A stretch of DNA of 64,000 bases. It comes from a bacterium (GTDB lineage Bacteria > Electryoneota > AABM5-125-24 > Hatepunaeales > Hatepunaeaceae). Shown one piece after another: positions 3,014 to 25,938 of this stretch. Location of the stretch: assembly GCA_021734165.1 (NCBI GenBank), contig JAIPJL010000001.1, positions 8,792-72,791 on the forward strand, in the 5' to 3' direction. The translations under genes were made by a program, and so were the position numbers. The notes beneath the pieces are model-generated. The model did no database searches. It saw only the letters and a list, made by a program, of their open reading frames with translations, and was not told where the DNA came from. Within the stretch, counting starts at the first letter, position 1, and each line of letters begins with the position of its first letter.

Positions 3014-3482
3014 ATCGGACAGAATTGTCTCCTGTGAAAAAGTAAGATAAACATGCTGCAAACGCCTGTTTAGTATTGGTTTGCAGCAATATTAGTTTAA
3101 TGTTAAACTATTATAACGTTGACGGAAGATAAGCACTGATTCGTGATTGCTGATTACATAACAAGAACCAACGATACTCAATACCACATTACATAATGAC
3201 AAACATCCCGTTTGATGCATAAACATAAACCACCCAATACACATAAATACATACAAGTCCTTAATAATTAACAAATTATAAACAGATCCGAATCTAAATT
3301 GAAATATTTCATAAAATACTGATAAATAAAGAGATAATAATTTAAAAGTATATTTAATACTATTTTAGTATTATTTTTATTGAAAACACTTGACTTACAT
3401 AAATATACTTTATATATTCTTCGTTGAGTAAGTATTCTTGAGCGATGATTTTCATTGCAAAACGCATTAATATTACACAAAA

Positions 3483-14951: not shown

Positions 14952-15314
14952 TTATTCAAACCTGATGTCTGCAACAACAGGTTCACCGACGGCATCATTG
15001 AGCTTCCTACGAATAACTTCTTTATCATAACTAAGCTCATTTCGCCAGACAGCATTTTTCACCTTAACTCGAAGAATGCCATTACTAATCGATATCGGTG
15101 ATGTAACTTTAATTATCTCTTTACCAACTACCTGTTCCCAGACAATAATCGCTCTTTGAGACTTAATTATTTTCTGGCAACCAAGTTTGTTCGTGAGATC
15201 ATCTATAGCTAAGCCAAGAGGAATCGAATCTCGCCTATGAGGAAGTTCGCTAACCCATTTCAGATAACCCGTCAGCCTTTTCTGGCTTTGGGGTTTCTTC
15301 TGTTGAAACGACAT
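14952..15314 (-). CDS. DUF721-family protein, the RecF-operon-associated small Zn-ribbon-like protein
   Basis: It is 120 aa and sits in the conserved dnaN-(recF)-DUF721-gyrB position. A typical basic N-terminus is present. Confidence 0.65.
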   Translation of the reverse strand: MSFQQKKPQSQKRLTGYLKWVSELPHRRDSIPLGLAIDDLTNKLGCQKIIKSQRAIIVWEQVVGKEIIKVTSPISISNGILRVKVKNAVWRNELSYDKEVIRRKLNDAVGEPVVADIRFE

Positions 15315-15322
15315 TTATAAAC

Positions 15323-16441
15323 CTACTTGAGCCTGATAGGCATCAGCAGCATTAAATGATCTTCATCTTCCTGTTGACCGGTGGCTGTAACTACGGCAGC
15401 ATCATTAGTTGATTTTAGCGCAAAAACGACTTCTTCTGTATCTATCTGACGCAATACATCAATAAGATAGCTTGAATTGTAGGCAATCTCAAGTGGCTCA
15501 CCACTGTAATCAATTGCGATCTTTTCTTCACCGCGACCACCAAGCTCGGGATCTTCTGTTTCAAGCTTCATATCCATGTCTGAAATAGAAAGCTTAACCT
15601 GATGTGAAATCTGGTTTGCAAAGATCGATACTCTACCAACAGTAGCCATAAACTCATCAGCATTGACTGTCATCTTATACGGATTATCATCAGGAATTAC
15701 ACTTTCATATTTCGGGTAATGACCATCAATAAGCCGTGTGATTAGTCTTTGATGCTCAGTATAGAAATATGCTCTGGTTTCAGCAATTCCGATCTCCGGT
15801 TCGTCAGCATCATCCAGACTGCGTGTTAATAGATTCAGGGCTTTCATAGGTATCACTACATCACGAGCTTCACCTGAAAATTCAATTCCTCGCCTGATGA
15901 TTCGAGATAATCTATGTCCGTCTGTAGCTACGACACGTAGTTCATTTGATCTGATCTGCATTAATATACCGGTAAGTATAGGACGCATATCATCACGTGA
16001 TACTGCAAAAACTGTTTTTGAAATCAACCTTTTTAAGAACTCGCCACTTATCTTGAAGTTAATCTTCGCCTCGACAGAAGGAAGCTCCGGAAAATCCATA
16101 GGATCACCACCTGGAAGAGTATAAACGCCAACACCTTCACAGTTAAGTGTAACCTTTCTGCCTTCATGGACTTCCACCTCAAGAGGTACATCCGGCAGTT
16201 TGCTCACAAGCTCTTGTAGCCTCTTTGCCTGAATTAAAACACTACCATCTCCTTCTGACTCTATAATCTCAACTTTTGAAGTTATAGTAATCTCAAGATC
16301 TGTCGCAGTAATATCAAGACTACCATCTTTCAGTCTGAAGAAAATGTTACCAAGTGAAGGCATAGGCATTCTCACAGGTACTGCGCCCATAACCCGTTGG
16401 AGACTTCTATGTATCGAAGCCTGAGTGAACGTAAATTTCAT
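15323..16441 (-). CDS. dnaN: DNA polymerase III beta sliding clamp
   Basis: N-terminus MKFTFTQASIHRSLQRV, three clamp domains and 372 aa in total. It lies directly downstream of dnaA. Confidence 0.9.
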   Translation of the reverse strand: MKFTFTQASIHRSLQRVMGAVPVRMPMPSLGNIFFRLKDGSLDITATDLEITITSKVEIIESEGDGSVLIQAKRLQELVSKLPDVPLEVEVHEGRKVTLNCEGVGVYTLPGGDPMDFPELPSVEAKINFKISGEFLKRLISKTVFAVSRDDMRPILTGILMQIRSNELRVVATDGHRLSRIIRRGIEFSGEARDVVIPMKALNLLTRSLDDADEPEIGIAETRAYFYTEHQRLITRLIDGHYPKYESVIPDDNPYKMTVNADEFMATVGRVSIFANQISHQVKLSISDMDMKLETEDPELGGRGEEKIAIDYSGEPLEIAYNSSYLIDVLRQIDTEEVVFALKSTNDAAVVTATGQQEDEDHLMLLMPIRLK

Positions 16442-16932
16442 TTATTTTTCCTTTCTTACTGAGTAAATGCTCCTACTAAACGGAACTTACCCGTTCAATA
16501 ATGTATAAATTATCAGGTAAGATAGCAACACCTTTGAGTACCTTTTTACCTTTGTGAAAAATCGTATTTAAATTACTAAAGAATAATATATTATTTTAAA
16601 AATAATAGTGGTAATAATGGTGTTAATTTGTTGATAAAGATGCTGTTTTTGAACTTAATTATTCTATAAGTGTTGAATTATTTTGAACTAAAAGAATAAG
16701 GCGAAAATGTTAATAGTATTGTTAATAAGATTACTTTACGTTAATTAACATTAATAAAAAATAGAAATACTCGGATCCGCTTAGTTTGAAACTTATAGCT
16801 AATATATATTAACATTAGGTTTCAAAATTGGTTAATAAAGAGAGAAAAAAGCGTTAGTTTATGTTTATCCCGGTACGACATATAAACTAACGCAATTTTA
16901 AAACTCTGTTGACTTTTTATCAGCATGTGAGA
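16442..16932. promoter_or_regulatory. Candidate oriC: an AT-rich 491 bp dnaA-dnaN intergenic region
   Basis: Very AT-rich, with long A/T tracts that could act as a DNA-unwinding element. It contains TGTTGATAA (16629-16637), an 8/9 match to the reverse DnaA box TGTGGATAA, and several TTATC(A/C) fragments. Confidence 0.45.
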
Positions 16933-18327
16933 TTAGATTAAAGCAATGTCAATATCCCTTCGGATTTTTGCGATCATTTCTCTAACTTTAACATTATTCT
17001 CGATGAGTTCATTTACTACTTTCACAGCATGAATAACAGTTGCGTGATTTCTCCCGCCAAAATGCAGTCCGATAGTTTTTTGTGTTAGAATTGTGTATTC
17101 AGTAGTCAGATACATAGCGATATGTCTGGCTCTTACGACTTCTTTTTTTCGTGTTTTCGACCGGATTAAATCACTTGGTATATCCATCTCCCTGGCAACC
17201 ATTTCCTGGATTTGATCCACTGATATCGTATAGGATGGCTGGTTATGTTGTTTCTTGATAGCCTCACGAGCAAGATCAAGGGTTATTTCACGTCCCATTA
17301 GGGATGATTGAGCGAGAAGCTGAATTAACGCACTCTGTAAAGAGCGAATGTTAGTCGAGATGTGAACTGAAAGGAAATGGGCAATATCGTCTGAGATGTC
17401 GATGCCATTTTCTTTGGAGAGGTTCTTTAATATTGCCAGTCGTGTTTCATATTCAGGTTTTTGTACTTCTGCGACAAGTCCCCATTGCAACCGACTAACA
17501 AGTCTTTTATCGAAACCGTTAAGTTCATTTGGAGGACGGTCTGAGGAAAAGACCAGTAATTTACCTACCTGGTGAAGTGAGTTAAATGTATGGAAAAACT
17601 CCTCCTGAGTTTTCTCCTTAGTCATAAAGAATTGGACGTCATCAAGCAAAAGTAGATCTACATTTCTATAGTTTTTTATAAAGACGTCTTTTTTTCCATC
17701 CTGAATGCCTTTGATAAAATCAGATGTAAACTGTTCGCTTGTAACATAGAGTACTTTTTTTACCCGACCGAGTTCAACAGCGCGATTACCTATAGCCTGC
17801 ATTAAATGTGTTTTACCTAATCCGGAACCACCATAAATAAGTAGCGGATTGAAGGGATTTTTTCCTGGTGTTTCAGCAAGCGAGAGAGCTGCCGCGCGCG
17901 CAAAGCTATTGCAATCGCCTTCAATGAAATTACTAAACCTATAACGTGGATTTAGATGAGTGTAACTGGCGCTGATGCTTAAAGTTGATGTATAATCAGA
18001 AGTTGGCGCTGATTTTTCTCTGTAGGCAATTCGTTCGCTTATAATTTGAGGTTTGCCTGGATTGATGTCGTACATAACCACAATATTTTCACCGAGCACG
18101 TCTTTAACAGCTTGATGCAGCGGATCATGGTAATGACTCTCAATCCAGTCATGGCAAAATTGACTTGGGATACGGAGTGTTAGTGTCTTTTGGTCATATG
18201 CAAGAGCTTCAATAGGCTTAAACCAGGTGAGGTAGCTCTGTGGAGGAATGATATCTTGCAAGATTGTAGAAATTTTTTGCCAAACCATCTGTGGATGTTC
18301 ACTTGATTGAAAGGCTGGTTGGGTCAT
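16933..18327 (-). CDS. dnaA: Chromosomal replication initiator DnaA
   Basis: AAA+ Walker A is GGSGLGKTHL. The C-terminal DnaA-box binding domain is present (IAMYLTTEYT..IGLHFGGRNHATV). Confidence 0.95.
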   Translation of the reverse strand: MTQPAFQSSEHPQMVWQKISTILQDIIPPQSYLTWFKPIEALAYDQKTLTLRIPSQFCHDWIESHYHDPLHQAVKDVLGENIVVMYDINPGKPQIISERIAYREKSAPTSDYTSTLSISASYTHLNPRYRFSNFIEGDCNSFARAAALSLAETPGKNPFNPLLIYGGSGLGKTHLMQAIGNRAVELGRVKKVLYVTSEQFTSDFIKGIQDGKKDVFIKNYRNVDLLLLDDVQFFMTKEKTQEEFFHTFNSLHQVGKLLVFSSDRPPNELNGFDKRLVSRLQWGLVAEVQKPEYETRLAILKNLSKENGIDISDDIAHFLSVHISTNIRSLQSALIQLLAQSSLMGREITLDLAREAIKKQHNQPSYTISVDQIQEMVAREMDIPSDLIRSKTRKKEVVRARHIAMYLTTEYTILTQKTIGLHFGGRNHATVIHAVKVVNELIENNVKVREMIAKIRRDIDIALI

Positions 18328-18563
18328 ATCTTATGTTCCTATGGGATAAGGACTTATGTTTACTGCTACATGTGATAGAAAATATATACAGGACTTGCAT
18401 TTGAGTCAAGTGTTTAACGCGATTTAATTATTCTTAAACACATTAATACAAATTAAGGGAAATTCCATTTAAACAAGGAATAAGCCATATTAAGATTTTT
18501 AAAAGGTGTCTAAGGCGGTATATAATTCTATGTTGTGCATTAATAGAAGGATGCGTGTATTTA

Positions 18564-20306
18564 TCACTTACCTGTTTTCAACCAGATTGGATTCGAGTAT
18601 GCGAATCGAGTTGAGCCATTATGCAGGCGAGTGTGAATTTCTGCTCTTAGATAAAGCTCGCCTTGAAGCTGAAACTCAATACCCTTGTAATATATTGGTT
18701 CATTATTATTTACATCAAAATTCACTTGGAAGATTGATTTTTCGTCACCGGAATTATAAGTATTAACAATAATTCTTTCTATACAGCCGAATTCTTCTGA
18801 TGATTGACATGTGACTCGTATAAGGGAGTTTGGATCAGATAAGGTCTCGTCTCCGGATAAAAATTTCTTTGATTGATTTAGGACAGTCAATTCGAGGACT
18901 GGTCCGCTACTAATAACAGTCCTTCCAAGTTCTAAAGCTTTTAGAACATTTTGCACAGTGGGAGTTTCGTTGATGTACACATGAGTAGTGGATTTACCAA
19001 AGATAAAGTTATCATGTTCATGCAGTGAAAGCATCGGCATTTTTACCTGCCTGAAACGATTGAAGTTGCCATGTGCATCATTACCGGCGTATATATAACG
19101 TCTTTCACCCTTCAACAGCGCTGTTATCCATTTTTCTAATCCGAGATAAAAATCCTTTTCCGGATTTCCGTTGAGTATCTGCCATCCGCTAAGTCCGGAA
19201 GCGCTCAGATCGCTATCCTGCCAGATACTTCTATTAACCAAATGCTTTTGCAGAAATGGTACAGGGGAAAATGGATGCGCCGCTATAGTAACCGAATTCT
19301 CTGACAGAGCGGCTATGGCATGTCTGACGGTAAATTGGCTTCTCGTCTGAAACCATTCCTGAGCGCTGTCACCTGTGCCCTGTAGGAATCTTTGCTCACC
19401 AAGAACCAGCATGTGGACGTTTTTTCCATTGGATGCTCGACAGGTCAGTTCCTCACCCGGAACGAGTACAACACTACCGGGCATTTTATTGAGACGTTTA
19501 ACATGAGACAGGAATCCGTGCCATTTAAGGAGTTGCGGATCATCGTGAAGATAGTCATCGATCATGTCATCGAGGTTGTATGAGTGGTCGGTAAGGCTTA
19601 CCCAGTCGAGTCCCAGCGCATCCGCTGTTGATTTTATGGCTTCGAGAGGAGCTCCGAACTCAACCTGATCGCAGCCGTATTCAGTGTGGGTATGCAGTTC
19701 TCCGGCATACCAGCCTGGCAGCTTCGGTAGTGGCTCGGCAGCGAGAAAGACCTCAAGCGGAGCTTGTGATAGCCCATGATAGTTATCCTGACTAACATCC
19801 CATGTGCGTTTTTTATCTTGAAGATGAGCGGTTGCTTCGATCTTGACCAAACCAGGTGGAAAATCAGACACATCCACGTCTGAGACGCAGTGCCAGAGGG
19901 ATTTGTTAATCCACAGGTTCAACGGTATGTTGAGCGACTGCGATTTTTCGCCGTTGCTGATCCTGATGTCAATACTCTCGAGCTTAACCGGAAAATGGTG
20001 GGCGTCTTTGATGATCATTGTTATCGGCAGATTGTGATTGGGTTCCAGCCTGAAGGGAGCGTCGAAGATTACTTCCGGCTCACGCCTGAAGTATCTGCTG
20101 AAAGGAAAACCGCGAAAGCGATAGTGAGTCTCAGCGTAGAGCCCGATCAGGGGGATTAGATCGGGGATGTTTATGTTAGTTGGATCAATCAAGGTTTCCG
20201 ATAATAACACAGTAGTGGTGTCAGGTATCCTCGCCCTGCAGCGCTTCCGTTGAATTATCACCCGGAGTAACGAAGCTTGCTTCGTTGTAGAGCAGCGCTC
20301 AGGCAA
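18564..20306 (-). CDS. PHP-domain metal-dependent phosphoesterase with unknown N- and C-terminal regions. The start is uncertain.
   Basis: PHP motifs: GELHTHTEYG (HxH), SLTDHS, VLVPGEELTC, IAAHPFSP and AGNDAHG. The first Met of the ORF may not be the true start. Confidence 0.6.
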   Translation of the reverse strand: MPERCSTTKQASLLRVIIQRKRCRARIPDTTTVLLSETLIDPTNINIPDLIPLIGLYAETHYRFRGFPFSRYFRREPEVIFDAPFRLEPNHNLPITMIIKDAHHFPVKLESIDIRISNGEKSQSLNIPLNLWINKSLWHCVSDVDVSDFPPGLVKIEATAHLQDKKRTWDVSQDNYHGLSQAPLEVFLAAEPLPKLPGWYAGELHTHTEYGCDQVEFGAPLEAIKSTADALGLDWVSLTDHSYNLDDMIDDYLHDDPQLLKWHGFLSHVKRLNKMPGSVVLVPGEELTCRASNGKNVHMLVLGEQRFLQGTGDSAQEWFQTRSQFTVRHAIAALSENSVTIAAHPFSPVPFLQKHLVNRSIWQDSDLSASGLSGWQILNGNPEKDFYLGLEKWITALLKGERRYIYAGNDAHGNFNRFRQVKMPMLSLHEHDNFIFGKSTTHVYINETPTVQNVLKALELGRTVISSGPVLELTVLNQSKKFLSGDETLSDPNSLIRVTCQSSEEFGCIERIIVNTYNSGDEKSIFQVNFDVNNNEPIYYKGIEFQLQGELYLRAEIHTRLHNGSTRFAYSNPIWLKTGK

Positions 20307-20396
20307 GCCTGAACACTCCGGATTTAATTAACCAAAGTTGGATAGTTGATAAGCGACTGTATTTCAGGTTACAAGTAATCAACTGTTAATATATTT

Positions 20397-20957
20397 TCAA
20401 TCTCCGGCTAAAGCGCCTCGAATTCGCTCAAACTCTTTACAAGCTGCAACTAATGAATCAGGTGGAGATTCCAGTTCTTCCCCATTTTTGCAGTTATTTG
20501 CCAGCTTATCGACTAATTGATGTCCTTTCTTGCTTTCGCAAATCGTTCTGTATTCGTTTTTGTATTCTTTTTGTTCGGATTCATCAACATCAACACCATC
20601 CAGATAGGCTGCCCACGTTTCAATAGACCATTTGGGAATGACGTATATAATCTGTTCTTTTTCCGTTCTGGGTGGTTGAAATTTTGAGTCAAGAATCCTG
20701 GTCGCCTCTTTTACAGAATCTTCATCAGCGTCGCGAACTATTAGCAGGATGGTTGAGGCATGTCGTGTCCGGAGCGCTTTCGCTTCCTCACCAATTTTAT
20801 CTTCCACGAATTTTTTACCCGAACCTTTCTCTCGCGGGTAGGGACGGAAACGAAATTTGTAGATAGGAACTTTCCAGCCTGACCTTAAAAAGCGACGAAC
20901 GAAAACCTCATGGCTTTTATCCTCACAAAGGACAATGATCTCCGAGGCTTTACTCAT
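20397..20957 (-). CDS. TOPRIM-like small protein of DUF4276/RloB-like type, partner of the upstream ATPase
   Basis: An N-terminal IIVLCEDKSHE acidic motif followed by LLIVRDADEDS (DxD) fits the TOPRIM Glu...DxD arrangement. The gene overlaps the ATPase stop by 8 nt. Confidence 0.5.
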   Translation of the reverse strand: MSKASEIIVLCEDKSHEVFVRRFLRSGWKVPIYKFRFRPYPREKGSGKKFVEDKIGEEAKALRTRHASTILLIVRDADEDSVKEATRILDSKFQPPRTEKEQIIYVIPKWSIETWAAYLDGVDVDESEQKEYKNEYRTICESKKGHQLVDKLANNCKNGEELESPPDSLVAACKEFERIRGALAGD

Positions 20958-22059
20958 TTTCCCAACCTCGTACCACTATTTCAGCAGGCGTAAGGTCAGC
21001 CACAGGTTTCAGAGGCTTCGTTATCACATGTGAACCCTCTTGACGCGAGAACCATAACTCTTCACCTCTTGCCATTTCATTAATGATCTCAGGGTGATGC
21101 GAGATAATAATGACTTGTCGATCATACTCATCGCAGATATCTTTCAGGTTGTTTATCCAGGGCTGAATTTCCCTTAGTGAAACGAAATTATCCGGCTCAT
21201 CTATTAAAATTTCCGTGTAAATTCCTATCTGAAGCGCTAACATTAGGGTGTAAAGTATAATTAGTTGGCGTTGCCCATCAGATAAGGATAGAAAATCAAA
21301 ATCCCTGTCCTTGCCGTTGATCCTGAAGGTTGCTGTTAAACGACGTGACGAACCAACCTCTTTCAGACGCAAGCTCTCAAAGCCTGGAAGTACGTCTTTC
21401 AAATGCTCTTTAGTCAGGTAACTTATATTTGGGTGTTCCTGAAAGATGTAGCGACACCATTCTGAAAAGTTCTCTGCATGAAAGGATAGCCATCGTGTTT
21501 CGGATTCAGCATCTTGTTTTACAAAATGAGGTATGGGGTTAATAAGCAACCATTTTAAAACAGCTTCACGGAAACGAAGCAGCGGCTCATTGCCTTCGTT
21601 TTCAGCGATAGTAGAAATAACCGAACGACTCCAGTCTGCCCCAAACGAAACTCCCTTCTCGGGTTTACCAGTATCTCTATTGACTCGATATAGGTGTGTG
21701 TTCTTTCCGTCAAACAGGTAGAAAGTGGAATCATTCCACTTCAATTCCTCTCTATCGATCCTGATCTTGTTCTCAGATTTTAACCACTCTATGCTAAGAT
21801 TGTAATCATAACTATCATTGTCTATCAGCATTGAAAAACCAATGGTCTGCGTTGTACGCTTGTCCCATACAGTCAAATCTGAGATGCTAAATATATCCTC
21901 CACATGGTTACCTTTTAAGAGAGACTGAATGTTTCTCAAAGCGGTAAGCACTGTGGATTTGCCGGAACCGTTATCACCAAGCCAGAGCTGAAATTCTCCC
22001 GGTTGGATGCGGAAATTGGTTAAACACTTGAAATTGTCAATGTAAATTTCTTTTATCAT
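20950..22059 (-). CDS. AAA_21/ABC-type ATPase of the OLD/PARIS AriA/RloA-like family
   Basis: Walker A is GDNGSGKST. A LSDGQRQ signature-like motif is present. Walker B is ILIDEPDNFVSL, and IISHH follows. Confidence 0.75.
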   Translation of the reverse strand: MIKEIYIDNFKCLTNFRIQPGEFQLWLGDNGSGKSTVLTALRNIQSLLKGNHVEDIFSISDLTVWDKRTTQTIGFSMLIDNDSYDYNLSIEWLKSENKIRIDREELKWNDSTFYLFDGKNTHLYRVNRDTGKPEKGVSFGADWSRSVISTIAENEGNEPLLRFREAVLKWLLINPIPHFVKQDAESETRWLSFHAENFSEWCRYIFQEHPNISYLTKEHLKDVLPGFESLRLKEVGSSRRLTATFRINGKDRDFDFLSLSDGQRQLIILYTLMLALQIGIYTEILIDEPDNFVSLREIQPWINNLKDICDEYDRQVIIISHHPEIINEMARGEELWFSRQEGSHVITKPLKPVADLTPAEIVVRGWENE

Positions 22060-22236
22060 CGTTGATCCTTTCTTCTGTGCTTGTTGAATATCCCTTTCAG
22101 CAAAATTAACATTATATGTCTCTAAATCAAAACATTATTTAATAAAAGTGGTTCTTCGCTTAATCGTATGGTTAATGAATTTAACACTGCTGTCTAAAAT
22201 AAATTACAAACGTAGCGAGCTTTGTTACTCCGAATA

Positions 22237-22917
22237 TCAAACAGCGCATGTTCCCGTTCCAAGTGCTTTAAAGCTCATCCCTTTATCGAGCAAAGTTCTC
22301 AAGATACCAGGCAGCGCTTCCAACATATTATCGACATAATTTCCTTTGTCATGGAGCAGGACAATATCTCCTGGCTTAACCTTCTTAACGATACGCTCAA
22401 CGAGTAACTTTGGTTGTATCGGTCGATAATCGCCTGCCGATAGCGACCAGAGAACGATTTGCATATTCAAGGATTTTACAACTGAAAGCAGGGGTAATCC
22501 TATGCGTCCGTAAGGTGGACGAAACAACCTTGAATTGCACAATCCGGCGTCGGATATTGCGCCTATGGAGCGGTTGATCTGATCGAGTACGGTTTCTCTT
22601 CCTGCCCAGACAAGCGAGCGATGGTCGTAACTATGACTTGCCACGGTGTGACCTGCTTCGTAAGTCTGTTTGATGATGTCAGGATATTGATCTGCCTGTG
22701 TTCCAATCACAAAAAACGTTGCTTTGCAGTTATACTCGTTGAGGATACTCAGCAGTTTAGTCGTATTAACCGGATCGGGACCGTCATCGAATGTTAAATA
22801 TATCCCATCCGGATCTCCTCGGCTGATTACGTTTGGAAATATAACTGAAGCAGCTTGTGGAAAAATATCTGAAAACATCAGGCTTTCCCCTTGCTCTGAA
22901 ATTGCTGCCCTTTCCAT
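22237..22917 (-). CDS. Polysaccharide deacetylase (NodB homology domain, CE4)
   Basis: FDDGPDP...ATFFVIG...HTVASHSYDH motifs. Confidence 0.85.
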   Translation of the reverse strand: MERAAISEQGESLMFSDIFPQAASVIFPNVISRGDPDGIYLTFDDGPDPVNTTKLLSILNEYNCKATFFVIGTQADQYPDIIKQTYEAGHTVASHSYDHRSLVWAGRETVLDQINRSIGAISDAGLCNSRLFRPPYGRIGLPLLSVVKSLNMQIVLWSLSAGDYRPIQPKLLVERIVKKVKPGDIVLLHDKGNYVDNMLEALPGILRTLLDKGMSFKALGTGTCAV

Positions 22918-24029
22918 TCGAAGCTGCTGAAATGTCCTCCAATTACAAACATTACCGTAACTAAGGGATAGATAAACTCGAGAATGAAAAACTCTGAAAG
23001 ACTATATTTTTCACAGAATAAACTGCTGCCGAGACTGAGCGCCTGCCAGTCAACCAGTAGCCTCATGGCTACCCAGATGAGAAAATACCGCCAATCAGAC
23101 GCAAGATAAGCAATGATTGGGCTGATGACCAGCAATAGTAAAAACAAAAACACACCGGCAAGGATAACCTTGCGTGAAGTTCGGTAGTAAAGTCCTTTAG
23201 AACCCCAGCGGATGCGCTGATGCCAAAGTTCTTTCAGTGTTGTTACAGGTTTGGTTTCAACGATTGCTTCCGGTAAGGCAGCGACAGCGATCTTCCAGTC
23301 GGTATTGGCGGCTTTAGCGAGTAATAGTTCATCATCACCGGAGATTATTTTTTCATAACCATCCCAGCCGTTTATTTCATCGAAGAGCTGTTTACGATAA
23401 GCAAGGCTTGCGCCTGTGCAGTGAAAGGGCATTCCGGCGGCGACAAGTCCTGCAGATGCATATCCTAAGGATTGGAAATCGAGAAATTGCAGCTTTTGCC
23501 AAAATGGAATTCGATTTTTGTTATTAGCGACAAACCGCGCTTGCCCAACTACCATTCCAACTTCAGGCGTCATTGTCGTGACAAGTGCGCGTATCCAGCC
23601 GGGATCATGTTTACAGTCAGCGTCAGTAGTTAATATTATCTCGCCTGTGGATGCTGCAATGCCTTTCTCTAATGCCTGCTTTTTAGGACTGATCCCTTGT
23701 GTTATTTCGCTTTGTTTGATAAGCTTGATTCTTTTATCTTGCTCGGAGAATTTCCTGACAATCTCAGAAGTATCATCTTCAGAACGATCATCTACAATGG
23801 TGATCTCCATCAAATCATGCGGATAGTTCTGCTTGAGAAGACTATTAAGCGTATCCGAAATGTTTTCCGCTTCATTGCGAGCTGCTATAATGATGCTAAC
23901 GCGGGGAGTTGCTTCCGATTCTTGCTGCGGCGTCATTTTCAGGCGCATCAGCCCGATGACAATACGGTTAAGTAACAGTAAATAAAAAAAGCCGCCGATG
24001 GACAGTATTATTTTCCAGACAAGTAGCAA
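22878..24029 (-). CDS. Family 2 glycosyltransferase, membrane-embedded and processive-type
   Basis: VSIIIAARNE...IVDDRSEDDT (DxD), TDADC and QRIRWG (QxxRW) motifs, with N- and C-terminal TM segments. Confidence 0.85.
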   Translation of the reverse strand: MLLVWKIILSIGGFFYLLLLNRIVIGLMRLKMTPQQESEATPRVSIIIAARNEAENISDTLNSLLKQNYPHDLMEITIVDDRSEDDTSEIVRKFSEQDKRIKLIKQSEITQGISPKKQALEKGIAASTGEIILTTDADCKHDPGWIRALVTTMTPEVGMVVGQARFVANNKNRIPFWQKLQFLDFQSLGYASAGLVAAGMPFHCTGASLAYRKQLFDEINGWDGYEKIISGDDELLLAKAANTDWKIAVAALPEAIVETKPVTTLKELWHQRIRWGSKGLYYRTSRKVILAGVFLFLLLLVISPIIAYLASDWRYFLIWVAMRLLVDWQALSLGSSLFCEKYSLSEFFILEFIYPLVTVMFVIGGHFSSFEWKGQQFQSKGKA

Positions 24030-24031
24030 TT

Positions 24032-25012
24032 CTAAACTTCCTTTTTACGTTTATCGATCTGAAGACGACTGATAAACAGAACGCCAATTAAAGCAGGTAT
24101 CAGTACGTTCATGGCGAACATGAGGATGGAGGCGTTGAAAGCAGCTTCAGGAGAAGCGCCGAACTGACCGAAAAATTGTACGGATACAAGCTGATCTACT
24201 CCGAGGTCGGCAATAGCAATAGGTAAAGCTGTTTTCGCAAAGAGAATAGCTGCTGCGCCGCGTATGCTGGTGAATATGTCTAACTGAGCAAAACTGCTGA
24301 TTAGCAGGTAGTACTGGACAAGGAATACAATGTAATGCGCAAGAGTCAACAGCAGCGTAAACCGCGCTTGCGGGGCGTTGAAATAATCCAAGCCATGCGC
24401 CAGTTGAGCGATTCTGTTTCGTCGCGGAAAGGTAATTTGAAGTGAATAGATAAGGCTTCTAATGGGTCGAGGATCAAGCGCCAAATAAAGCAGCAGCAAT
24501 CCAAGTATTAATACGAGGATAATAATCGAGATAAATAGGTGTGTTTTGGATATAAAGACATCCATCTCGATAATATCGAAAGTTCCGAGCTTAAATATCC
24601 AGGGTAATGTTATCAGGGCAGGAAGTCCGAATGCTACAGTACAGCCGATGTTGTAAAATTTATCAATTATCGTTAAACCGACGAGGTTCAGCGTATTGTG
24701 TTTGATAAAGAAACCGCGTCCGTATTCACCGATACGTCCCGGAGTCACAATACCGAGTGCATAACCGCCAAGTAATGAACCGAGTGACTCATTGAAGGTG
24801 ATGCCGGGATAAATAAGCCTGACGAGATAGCGCCATTTATACTCGGTCAGCCAGATATTCAAGGGCATGAGCAGAAATGCGGCAATTACAAGGCTATATT
24901 CCGCGGAGCGGAAAGCAGAAATGATAGCTTCCATGCGGATGGTGCGATACATTAAGCCAAGCAGAACAACAGCAACGGCGACTTTAATCCAGAATAGCGT
25001 TCGTTTCTTCAT
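24032..25012 (-). CDS. UPF0104 / lysylphosphatidylglycerol-synthase-TM-like (flippase-like) integral membrane protein
   Basis: Eight or more TM segments and the typical ...GGYALGIVTPGRIGEYGRGFF segment. Confidence 0.65.
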   Translation of the reverse strand: MKKRTLFWIKVAVAVVLLGLMYRTIRMEAIISAFRSAEYSLVIAAFLLMPLNIWLTEYKWRYLVRLIYPGITFNESLGSLLGGYALGIVTPGRIGEYGRGFFIKHNTLNLVGLTIIDKFYNIGCTVAFGLPALITLPWIFKLGTFDIIEMDVFISKTHLFISIIILVLILGLLLLYLALDPRPIRSLIYSLQITFPRRNRIAQLAHGLDYFNAPQARFTLLLTLAHYIVFLVQYYLLISSFAQLDIFTSIRGAAAILFAKTALPIAIADLGVDQLVSVQFFGQFGASPEAAFNASILMFAMNVLIPALIGVLFISRLQIDKRKKEV

Positions 25013-25938
25013 TAATAGACTGATTTACGAGGCAGATACAAATTTCTCAAGCCCTCTGTGCAGTTACGACACATCGGTATTTTATCCCTGCCTCCGTGAT
25101 TGACGACGTGTTGGAATTCTCTGATCGTTTTTCCTTTCCAGATTTCGCGCCAGGGCTGTTTGAAAGCATTGCCCATTGAGTGAAAGTCGTTGGTACTAAA
25201 ACAGCAGGGCAGTACATCCCCGTTCCATGCAACTACGGCGGAGTGAGCAAGTCTGCGGCAATTGGAGCGTGTTCTGTTCATCTCAAGATGATCGTTAACA
25301 AGTTTATACCGCCATAGCCTTGGGTCATCCGGCAAATGAGTCAAAGATTCTTCCAAATTTTCCGGATGCGAAACCCTGTAGGTCTTAAATTTAACCTCGT
25401 CAACTCCCAATGACAAGGTTAAATCATAAATAGCTTTGAATTGTGATTTTGATTGGCGTGAAATTAAACACTCGACGATGACCTTTGGTTTTCGGCTGCC
25501 GAGGCTCTTGCGAGCTTCAACGAGCGCGCGAACGCCTTTCTCAACGTCCGTCAGTGAACCACCTTTTCTGATGCGAGAATATGTTTCTTCATCAGCTCCG
25601 TCTATACCGATGCTAATTCTATTCAATCCGGATTTTACAATATTTTCAGCTAATCCACTTTTAGACAGCAGGATGCCGTTGGTATGAGTCTGAGTCCAGA
25701 TTTTACGCCGTGTCGCTTCAGCAACCATTGCAGTAAAATCGGGAGCAACGAGGGGATCGCCTCGGTGCCAGAGATTGAGGAATCTCAGCCAGGGTAATTG
25801 TTTGATGACATGGACGAAATACGCGATGCGCATCACGCCTCCGCCTCTACCGGAGGCGGTCGGGCAGTCAGGACAGTCAAGATTGCAGGCTGCGGATGGC
25901 TCCATCCAGAGCATTATGGGAGTCGGAAAACGAAACAC
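25012..25938 (-). CDS. Radical SAM enzyme with a C-terminal SPASM/twitch auxiliary Fe-S domain
   Basis: CNLDCPDC, which is the Cx3Cx2C radical-SAM cluster. Additional C-terminal Cys clusters are CRRLAHSAVVAWNGDVLPCC and CRNCTEG. Confidence 0.8.
   Translation of the reverse strand: MFRFPTPIMLWMEPSAACNLDCPDCPTASGRGGGVMRIAYFVHVIKQLPWLRFLNLWHRGDPLVAPDFTAMVAEATRRKIWTQTHTNGILLSKSGLAENIVKSGLNRISIGIDGADEETYSRIRKGGSLTDVEKGVRALVEARKSLGSRKPKVIVECLISRQSKSQFKAIYDLTLSLGVDEVKFKTYRVSHPENLEESLTHLPDDPRLWRYKLVNDHLEMNRTRSNCRRLAHSAVVAWNGDVLPCCFSTNDFHSMGNAFKQPWREIWKGKTIREFQHVVNHGGRDKIPMCRNCTEGLRNLYLPRKSVY

Follow-up and report, generated by a model that had tools for sequence, protein, structure and literature searches.

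Gene organization upstream of dnaA

Between dnaA (18327..16933), which has dnaN, a DciA/DUF721 gene and gyrB on the same downstream side, and an upstream cluster of deacetylase, GT2, LPG_synthase_TM and radical-SAM genes, the ORF list of the 64-kb window (the whole stretch of DNA analyzed) holds three open reading frames, all on the minus strand. An initial, sequence-only reading of this DNA had placed them at these positions between dnaA and a polysaccharide cluster, and both the placement and every motif it quoted are borne out. The first ORF (22059..20950, minus strand) encodes a 369 aa ABC-type ATPase (AAA_21/AAA_15, SMC/RecF-like), a putative sensor and regulator subunit, and the second (20957..20397, minus strand) encodes a 186 aa TOPRIM-like protein, a putative metal-dependent nuclease effector. 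The stop of the ATPase gene and the start of the TOPRIM gene overlap by 8 nt (20950..20957, minus strand; ATGAGTAA, read from the sequence), GAA AAT GAG TAA closing one frame and ATG AGT AAA opening the next, as the same reading had noted. Identical overlap geometry is present in loci L001, L002, L004, L007, and L010. The overlap fits translational coupling of the pair.

The third ORF was originally called as a 580 aa PHP-domain protein starting from a TTG (20306..18564, minus strand), 90 bp downstream of the pair. Its orientation and its motifs (HTHTEYG, TDHS, and NDAHG) are as described, but this start is probably incorrect: the identical protein is listed by NCBI with 542 aa (P0232), and alignments to more than 100 homologs begin only at residue 39, so that the start is most likely TTG 20192, which would widen the gap from 90 bp to 204 bp. 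The gene as revised (18564..20192, minus strand) encodes a 542 aa PHP metallohydrolase of the CehA/McbA family, scoring above the cut-off of NCBIfam NF038032 and having a PHP fold.

The intergenic region upstream of the ATPase gene (22060..22236, minus strand) contains one REP-like hairpin unit and then an AT-rich putative promoter region, and that between the TOPRIM and PHP genes contains an inverted pair of REP-like hairpins (20263..20320, minus strand) forming a compound stem-loop. No Rfam family was found at 16000-23000 of the window. Because DnaA boxes of the E. coli type show no enrichment and GC skew in the window follows gene strand, we do not claim an oriC here. PADLOC analysis of guessed neighbor proteins gave a single find, a pAgo-like gene.

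The ATPase resembles HEC-01A over its full length

The motifs quoted for the ATPase (GDNGSGKST, ILIDEPDNFVSL, and ISHH) are all present. We defined an ABC-type defense ATPase by a Walker A, Q-loop, ABC signature, Walker B and H-loop together with an AAA_21 score above the gathering threshold. Across 62 full-length ATPase homologs, Walker A residues G28-N30-G31-G33-K34 and Q71, the signature S260-G262-Q263-R264, Walker B D287-E288, and H321 are each at least 97% conserved, and Pfam AAA_21 is matched at 6.4e-14 (53.1 bits, where the cut-off is 27), with AAA_15 and SMC_N also matching; these features of its sequence place the protein among the ABC-type (AAA_21/AAA_15) defense ATPases. The PADLOC model HEC-01A (PDLC04176) is matched at 2.5e-22, residues 2-344 aligning with profile positions 3-339 of 371, and further PADLOC matches are to PDC-M25A, mad3 (2.5e-19), AbiLi (4.9e-18), and AriA (3e-17). 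NCBIfam antiphage_MADS3, whose cut-off is 420 bits, gives 45.4 bits, so the ATPase is not a MADS3 equivalog.

The small protein is a divergent TOPRIM-like protein

Both motifs quoted for the small protein (IIVLCEDKSHE and LLIVRDADEDS) are present, and its TOPRIM residues, Glu...DxD, are conserved. Under the superfamily definition used here, which asks for a conserved Glu following strand 1 and a DxD following strand 3 of a four-stranded beta-alpha-beta-alpha-beta-alpha-beta-alpha core, the protein is a TOPRIM protein, and its nuclease activity is putative. It had been assigned to the DUF4276/RloB kind; the TOPRIM part of that assignment stands, and a match of the protein itself to the DUF4276 or RloB profile does not, a Pfam search with the window protein returning nothing even at E≤10. 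Among 48 relatives, 17 match DUF3226 (PF11536, best 1.6e-5), 11 match DUF4276 (PF14103, best 6.8e-6), and 3 match RloB (PF13707, best 0.002). Since only relatives match these families, the window protein is a remote homolog and not a current member of them. The pattern is similar for HEC-01B, whose models do not match the window protein at E≤0.1 and do match 17 of 44 close relatives (best 3.4e-6) and 26 of 48 distant ones (best 4.7e-6); PADLOC mad4 is matched by 14/48. RloB and AbiLii matches are confined to few relatives and are marginal (E 0.002-0.02), a single relative of 48 matches Pfam OLD-like_TOPRIM (0.013), and DUF4435 is matched neither by the window protein nor by any family member. 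We conclude that the small protein is a divergent relative of DUF4276, DUF3226, HEC-01B, and Mad4.

A sequence search of PDB chains with the family profile gave spurious matches only (E>1), and Foldseek against the PDB gave nothing at E≤0.001, the matches of highest probability being retron Eco2 and GajA. Comparison by hhalign of alignments A1 and A2 with the family of 245-aa partners embedded in BREX (A5) was not significant (E about 0.3); the regions aligned in this comparison are DxD...PK..E.W. No copy of the small protein was found on plasmids.

The pair is a conserved and mostly free-standing unit

The ATPase and small genes always co-occur and are kept as a unit in 75 genome loci, and relative to L010 both are under purifying selection (dN/dS 0.18 and 0.39); on these grounds the ORF features are not due to chance. 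The cassette has a patchy distribution that spans many phyla, and no relatives were found on viral contigs. Clustering at 50% identity divides the clade into at least 1,644 clusters, and neither Pfam nor NCBIfam has a model that recognizes it. Flanking sequence is available for roughly 65 loci, and in about 60 of these the copy is free-standing, making autonomy the rule for the clade. Some orthologs sit inside Hma/MADS-type restriction-like systems (L015, L026, L048, and L050), with 43-62% identity to the small protein; in L015, L048, and L050 orthologs of about 60% identity lie between a DUF1156 methylase and a DUF499 ATPase. More distant ATPase relatives, with a small partner, are located between pglX and pglZ of BREX. 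Within the 64-kb window there are no Hma or other mad genes. The pair also recurs near replication genes: two Lentisphaeria genomes carry it between dnaN and recF, and in L032 (Desulfobacteraceae) gyrB-dnaN is about 7 kb away from it.

A 24-nt inverted repeat, matching at 21/24 positions, brackets the pair, and each arm consists of a self-complementary hairpin plus CGGAGT. The upstream unit (22209-22232) begins 4 nt past the deacetylase stop, and nucleotide homology to L010 ends exactly at 22209 and picks up again at 22079. The downstream pair is arranged as CGGAGT-hairpin, 10 nt, hairpin-ACTCCG, and RNA folding of 20193-20396 gives z = -3.2. We considered the repeats as cassette-specific terminal inverted repeats, i.e. 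transposon-like ends, and rejected this: given that the arms are self-complementary, that an identical 24-mer occurs beside sibling hairpins in 7 unrelated metagenome contigs, and that L010 retains just the upstream copy, we read them as dispersed REP-like elements. That DNA homology to E. clarkiae is confined to the two cassette ORFs likewise argues that they are not element ends.

Alternative explanations

The sequence-only reading proposed the PHP protein as a third component and named co-occurrence across genomes as a check. A three-gene system, in which the phosphoesterase works with the ATPase-TOPRIM pair, would fit the proximity and shared orientation of the genes, an arrangement kept in the near relative L010. 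However, none of the 75 related loci has a PHP homolog beside the pair, the two adjoining solely in metagenome contigs of the same lineage (L010-L012). In L088 and L089, close relatives that share the dnaA neighborhood, the pair is absent and PHP directly follows the deacetylase, and in Ignavibacteriales and KSB1 PHP stays with the cluster of GT2, LPG_synthase_TM, deacetylase, and radical-SAM genes. At the present locus the 204 bp gap and its structured hairpin pair part the small gene from PHP, and dS of the pair is half that of the PHP gene. Co-occurrence and empty-site analysis thus rule out PHP as a module component, and we accord a three-gene system next to no probability. PHP is the last gene of a conserved glycosyltransferase cluster, a part of the host's housekeeping sugar-modification operon outside the cassette, and the cassette is inserted between the deacetylase and PHP, the last two genes of that cluster upstream of dnaA. 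Of the earlier interpretation as a whole, therefore, the ATPase and TOPRIM-like pair survives and the third component falls; an attractive three-gene interpretation is corrected, and PHP is assigned to a glycosyltransferase cluster widely conserved in FCB-group lineages.

The pair itself could be a selfish, toxin-antitoxin-like addiction module, with a TOPRIM toxin and an ATPase neutralizer, that spreads without giving defense. AAA + TOPRIM_OLD pairs have been validated as toxin/neutralizer pairs in E. coli (PMC10440598), the unit is compact with overlapping ORFs, a patchy phylogenetic distribution and insertions into housekeeping operons, and HEC-01 gave no phage protection (10.1101/2024.01.29.577857). 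Yet toxin-antitoxin behavior and abortive-infection defense are not mutually exclusive, and orthologs sit inside Hma/MADS systems, where mad3 and mad4 are required for MADS defense (10.1101/2023.03.30.534895); we consider this explanation unlikely. Those embedded orthologs, the BREX-associated relatives, and the lack of Hma-like genes in the window would suit a pair that once served as accessory to an Hma/MADS or BREX-type restriction system and was orphaned when that system was lost, leaving the pair non-functional or decaying here. This we regard as quite unlikely, as neither ORF is disrupted, all catalytic residues are kept, dN/dS is well below 1 for both, and most loci are free-standing. 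A housekeeping replication or repair module like RecF (ABC ATPase) and RecR (TOPRIM) would account for the position next to dnaA/dnaN: sizes and domain types run parallel, the ATPase N-terminus weakly matches the recF model (2e-6), the pair recurs in replication neighborhoods, and the window has no recF between dnaN and dciA. Against it, the pair is missing from L088 and L089, its distribution is sporadic with a signature of horizontal transfer, a bona fide recF coexists where the pair adjoins dnaN (TIGR00611, 308 bits), and the best family matches of the ATPase are defense ATPases rather than RecF, so that such a module is highly improbable. We speculated that an autonomous minimal cassette with no linked mobility gene, which may lodge by preference in conserved housekeeping operons and repeatedly in the replication-initiation cluster (dnaA, dnaN-recF, gyrB-dnaN), might carry out RecF/RecR-like surveillance of replication-associated DNA structures, instead of or besides phage defense, and hold this to be very unlikely.

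Proposed function and significance

We consider it likely that the locus carries a horizontally acquired, free-standing cassette that pairs an ABC-type ATPase with a minimal TOPRIM-like nuclease and is of the HEC-01/Mad3-Mad4/AbiL/PARIS kind, a known candidate type of phage defense whose function is unproven. By analogy with PARIS, OLD, Gabija, and AbiL, an ATPase oligomer would keep the TOPRIM subunit inactive and serve as the sensor of an infection cue, whether a protein of the phage, an anti-restriction factor or aberrant DNA. On detecting it, the ATPase would bind or hydrolyze ATP and thereby free or activate the TOPRIM subunit, which could cut nucleic acid in a metal-dependent manner through E12, D13, D76, and D78, either by DNA nicking or by tRNA/RNA cleavage, and so might halt phage replication or host growth.

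Few designs recur as commonly in prokaryotic immunity as the pairing of an ATPase with a TOPRIM protein (OLD, Gabija, PARIS, AbiL, Mad3/4, and HEC-01), and to our knowledge no trigger, target or stand-alone phenotype has been described for the HEC-01/Mad3-4 branch. The cassette represents a large, essentially unannotated clade of this branch that is mostly a free-standing 1.7-kb unit under purifying selection, and is for that reason a compact candidate for mechanistic study; with its 369 + 186 aa it is the smallest split version among those seen here. The clade would justify new HMMs in defense-finder tools.

Comparison with known systems

AbiL (AbiLi/AbiLii), a proven abortive-infection system, and RloA/RloB are likewise two-gene modules of an ATPase and an RloB-type TOPRIM protein, but the window locus has neither a type I R-M context nor a plasmid location. 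In the OLD family (P2 Old, Ts/Bp OLD) and Gabija GajA the two domains are fused in one polypeptide, whereas here they occupy two ORFs. PARIS also splits its ABC ATPase and TOPRIM nuclease over two adjacent genes, and its ATPase scaffold senses a trigger and frees the TOPRIM effector, which cleaves tRNA (PMC11464382); the mechanism proposed above is modeled on it. However, AriB is a DUF4435 protein of about 35 kDa and AriA is about 55 kDa with coiled-coil inserts, compared with a 186 aa partner lacking a DUF4435 match and a 369 aa ATPase; with an AriA match weaker than that to HEC-01A, the pair falls outside PARIS. The two-gene resemblance to OLD, PARIS, and RloAB proposed at the outset holds for the split ATPase and TOPRIM design and not for membership of OLD or PARIS.

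Mad3/Mad4 of MADS from P. aeruginosa is an ATPase paired with a DUF4276-type TOPRIM protein, and MADS protection falls on deletion of either gene (10.1101/2023.03.30.534895). The window has no further mad genes, and by MADS3 score and mad6-8 content it is not a MADS locus. HEC-01 (Hma-embedded candidate 01; PADLOC; Payne et al. preprint 10.1101/2024.01.29.577857), of which the sole tested representative was negative in E. coli, is similarly a two-gene system of an ABC ATPase and a small TOPRIM protein. Embedding in Hma (helicase-methylase-ATPase) is its discovery criterion and is not needed for detection; as the small protein has no HEC-01B match at E≤0.1, PADLOC would probably not call it. 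The window copy differs in being free-standing in a housekeeping operon rather than Hma-embedded, but its ATPase matches HEC-01A over the full length and its small protein has orthologs lodged within Hma systems themselves.

Gene organization and the host operon

Re-reading of the ORF positions bore out the three ORFs of the sequence-only reading, all on the minus strand: an ATPase gene (22059..20950, 369 aa), a small TOPRIM-like gene (20957..20397, 186 aa) and a PHP-type ORF as first called at 20306..18564. All of the motifs it quoted were found in the three proteins, and the ATPase and small genes do overlap by 8 nt, the shared string being ATGAGTAA. The 90-bp spacer given between the small and PHP genes is more likely 204 bp: the NCBI entry identical to the window's PHP protein (P0232) is 542 aa, and more than 100 homologues start at the equivalent of residue 39 of the first-called ORF, which together make the TTG at 20192 the likely start. 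Upstream of the pair lie genes for a polysaccharide deacetylase, a GT2 glycosyltransferase, an LPG_synthase_TM protein and a radical-SAM protein; downstream of the PHP gene come dnaA (18327..16933) and then dnaN, dciA and gyrB. At 14952-16441 dnaN leads through dciA (DUF721) directly to gyrB, without recF in between, an order shared by the pair-less relatives L088 and L089 and thus a lineage trait unconnected with the cassette.

The PHP gene, which encodes a CehA/McbA metallohydrolase with the PHP barrel flanked by two beta-sandwich domains, had been proposed as a possible third component. Full-length homologues number more than 1,000 and come from Electryoneaceae, Calditrichota, KSB1, Ignavibacteriales and Marinimicrobia. 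Among 75 loci and the metagenome contigs, a homologue stands beside the pair in L010-L012 alone, which are of the window's own lineage. Three relatives (L088, L089 and L090) have the order LPG_synthase_TM, GT2, deacetylase, PHP, dnaA, dnaN, dciA, gyrB, headed in L088 only by the radical-SAM gene; the deacetylase and PHP genes adjoin or share 8 nt, and the pair is absent. These loci are clean empty sites. The PHP gene is still the last of a glycosyltransferase cluster in Ignavibacteriales and KSB1, with dnaA not nearby. These arrangements decide the matter: the PHP gene does not belong to the cassette, and the pair is an insert of ~2 kb that separates deacetylase from PHP, the final two genes of a host operon. 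The conserved cluster for radical-SAM/SPASM, LPG_synthase_TM, GT2, deacetylase and a 540-aa PHP enzyme (window 18564-25938; also L088, L089, L091 and L093) recurs in Electryoneaceae-like bacteria, Ignavibacteriales and KSB1.

The ATPase

The 369-aa protein matches the Pfam families AAA_21 (6.4e-14, above the gathering score), AAA_15, SMC_N and ABC_tran and the PADLOC models HEC-01A (2.5e-22, full length), PDC-M25A and mad3 (2.5e-19), with further PADLOC matches to AbiLi, AriA, NsnB, GajA and PtuA. Its NCBIfam matches all fall far under threshold (antiphage_MADS3 45 bits, cut-off 420), that to recF being confined to the N-terminal 40 residues. Across 62 full-length homologues from related loci, Walker A (G28, N30, G31, G33, K34), the Q-loop Gln71, the ABC signature (S260, G262, Q263, R264), Walker B (D287, E288) and the H-loop His321 are each at least 97% conserved; the protein is thus an intact ABC-type ATPase. 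PADLOC model PDLC04144, labelled HEC-01B, matches the ATPase and PDLC04143, labelled HEC-01A, the TOPRIM family; the A/B labels of some HEC-01 sub-models appear swapped, perhaps reflecting variants with reversed gene order.

The small TOPRIM-like protein

The 186-aa protein has no match in Pfam, NCBIfam or PHROG and a sole, marginal PADLOC match (PDC-M31B, E=0.013). It nonetheless belongs to a real family: a word-indexed search returned 85 clusters, and searching 1.8 billion representatives with a profile returned 1,644 at E<=1e-3 and 1,227 at E<=1e-10, nearly all 170-200 aa among the matches listed. Close relatives share invariant C11, E12, D13, D76, D78, P108, W115 and E126; across 48 distant representatives E12, R63, D76, W115 and E126 never vary, and conservation of D13 and D78 is at least 90%, a pattern that points to an acidic metal site.

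An AlphaFold2 model built from the family alignment was confident (pLDDT 88.4, pTM 0.84) and predicts a beta-alpha-beta-alpha-beta-alpha-beta-alpha core (strands 6-10, 35-37, 69-74 and 103-106) with a helical C-terminal third. E12 would thus lie just past strand 1 and D76-x-D78 just past strand 3; a Glu after strand 1 and a DxD after strand 3 are the TOPRIM signature (PMC12065111). Support from structure searches was mixed: Foldseek returned nothing significant, the highest-probability results being the retron Eco2 complex (9lm3, chain E) and GajA.

Profile-level evidence was decisive. Scanned singly, members of the family, 48 distant and 44 close, repeatedly match the same few related models: HEC-01B is matched by 26 of the 48 (best E 4.7e-6) and 17 of the 44 (3.4e-6), DUF3226 by 17 of the distant relatives (1.6e-5), mad4 by 14 (5.9e-5), PDC-M31B by 12 (2.4e-4), DUF4276 by 11 (6.8e-6), PDC-M38B by nine (6.8e-5), RloB by three (0.002), OLD-like_TOPRIM by one (0.013), and AbiLii by two distant (0.016) and three close (0.02) relatives. 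We conclude that the small protein is a divergent, minimal TOPRIM-like member of the DUF4276/Mad4/HEC-01B superfamily that falls outside the DUF4276, Mad4 and HEC-01B models at current thresholds. Of the earlier assignment to a TOPRIM domain of the DUF4276/RloB kind, the TOPRIM-like fold stands, in the model and in the relatives' matches, but the window protein itself matches neither DUF4276 nor RloB.

Linkage, spread and selection

Wherever sequence exists, in 75 loci of GTDB species genomes and in metagenome contigs, the small gene is immediately preceded by an ATPase homologue, and most of these loci keep the 8-nt overlap. Hosts include Desulfobacterota, Chlorobiota, Synergistota, Fibrobacterota, Hydrogenedentota, Planctomycetota, Lentisphaerota, Acidobacteriota and others. 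Identity across phyla (ATPase 55-66%, small protein 54-62%) equals or exceeds that of DnaA between the window and its closest empty-site relatives (54-58%). Against L010, a syntenic near relative carrying the pair, dS is ~0.5 for the pair and 1.1-1.4 for every flanking gene; the flanking genes have dN/dS of 0.03-0.12, compared with 0.18 (ATPase) and 0.39 (TOPRIM) in the pair. These values indicate a horizontally exchanged cassette, maintained by selection, with the effector evolving faster.

Although the window (20397-22059) and L010 (3551-5213) carry the pair at one and the same site, its dS is under half that of the flanks. Either codon constraint is strong, or the cassette was exchanged here between lineages at a later time. 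The intergenic flanks differ between the two, whereas both ORFs are conserved; L010 has an extra 83-aa ORF (3150-3401) between a REP-like unit and the ATPase gene, which has no family match and is absent from the window.

Flanking repeats

A 24-nt inverted repeat brackets the pair (20263-20286 and 22209-22232, 21/24 match), and no shuffle of the window gave one as good. Each arm consists of CGGAGT and a 7-8-bp hairpin, centred in these REP-like units on GCTTGC/GCAAGC. One unit lies upstream of the cassette (22209-22232), and two inverted units in the downstream spacer (20263-20320) form a compound stem-loop (z = -3.2). Transposon ends were considered and rejected: seven unrelated metagenome contigs (L095-L101) also carry this 24-mer, beside sibling hairpins with different stems, L010 has only the upstream unit (3158-3181), and at the nucleotide level the E. 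clarkiae copy is homologous to the window only across the two ORFs (22060..20391). One sibling hairpin with another stem reads GCACAAGCAAGCTTGTGC-ACTCCGG. No integrase or transposase was found in the neighbourhood of the cassette, and Rfam gave no family match for the window's REP-like copies. Their distribution suggests a family of dispersed REP-like elements, which may act as insulators or recombination hot spots.

The pair in other genomes

The ORFs nearest the pair, 121 in all, represent 114 Pfam families, chiefly housekeeping, with a few recurrent exceptions. One is embedding of the Hma/MADS type: the pair is flanked by HmaB (DUF1156 methylase) and HmaC (DUF499 ATPase) in Desulfobulbus alkaliphilus, Oligosphaera ethanolica and a Lentisphaerota MAG (L050), and a DUF499 fragment directly follows it in a Desulfobacteraceae MAG (L026). 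In a gammaproteobacterial MAG, a pAgo-like protein (L057 4012-5271; PADLOC pAgo 5.5e-20) is encoded immediately upstream of a distant copy. At eight loci (including L069, L075 and L079) miaA, encoding tRNA dimethylallyltransferase, lies immediately downstream, as confirmed in three Terracidiphilus MAGs. These copies are distant members (29-35% identity), and the neighbourhood is probably lineage synteny; it is notable because the related TOPRIM effector AriB targets tRNA.

In two Lentisphaeria genomes the pair separates dnaN from a bona fide recF (L047 256-4173; L049 7783-10543), and an internally deleted copy lies ~7 kb from gyrB-dnaN in a Desulfobacteraceae MAG (L032 2127-12995). Copies near the origin cluster thus occur in three lineages, the window's included, of roughly 65, against a rough expectation of ~0.3 under uniform placement, a post hoc count that ignores phylogeny; recurrent placement near replication-initiation genes is unproven.

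Plasmids of Azotobacter (NZ_CP045303.1; L102 6001-7901) and Acinetobacter (NZ_CP032284.1; L104 4001-5869) have BREX-1 systems in which a distant ATPase relative of ~25% identity and an unannotated 245-aa partner are encoded between pglX and pglZ. The partner has more than 1,190 homologues and no Pfam domain; it shares with the small protein the motif order D-x-D ... PK..E.W, and hhalign found no significant link between the two families.

Proposed mechanism and comparison with known systems

ATPase and TOPRIM domains occur together in OLD, Gabija and AbiL. AAA-TOPRIM pairs behave experimentally as toxin/neutraliser pairs (PMC10440598), and in PARIS the AriA ATPase scaffold frees the TOPRIM protein AriB, which cleaves tRNA (PMC11464382). 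From these precedents we infer the ATPase-TOPRIM interaction, trigger, substrate and outcome, and consider a sensor ATPase with a sequestered TOPRIM subunit the most likely model. An ABC ATPase oligomer would hold the TOPRIM subunit inactive and serve as sensor; once a trigger is sensed, it would license the acidic site (E12, D13, D76, D78), which would cleave nucleic acid in a metal-dependent manner. The conserved catalytic inventory and the selection are read from sequence, and the gene overlap is consistent with translational coupling.

The architecture is already catalogued as HEC-01, an ABC ATPase and TOPRIM found Hma-embedded, and as Mad3/Mad4. The sole HEC-01 tried did not protect E. 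coli (10.1101/2024.01.29.577857), and deletion of mad3 or mad4 lowers MADS protection (10.1101/2023.03.30.534895). The window ATPase matches the HEC-01A model, the window's own small protein falls short of the HEC-01B, DUF4276 and mad4 models, and Hma-embedded orthologues have a small protein 43-62% identical to the window's. The window falls short of the MADS equivalog score and lacks the other mad genes. The suggested likeness to a two-gene OLD, PARIS or RloAB nuclease holds for the split ATPase and TOPRIM design, but OLD has its domains fused and the DUF4435 feature of PARIS is missing from the window pair. Useful outcomes are the correction of the PHP gene to a non-member, the delineation of a large small-protein family without a recognising model, and the recurrent, though unproven, siting by replication-initiation genes. 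We classify the window pair as a poorly annotated, mostly free-standing clade of the known ATPase-TOPRIM kind.
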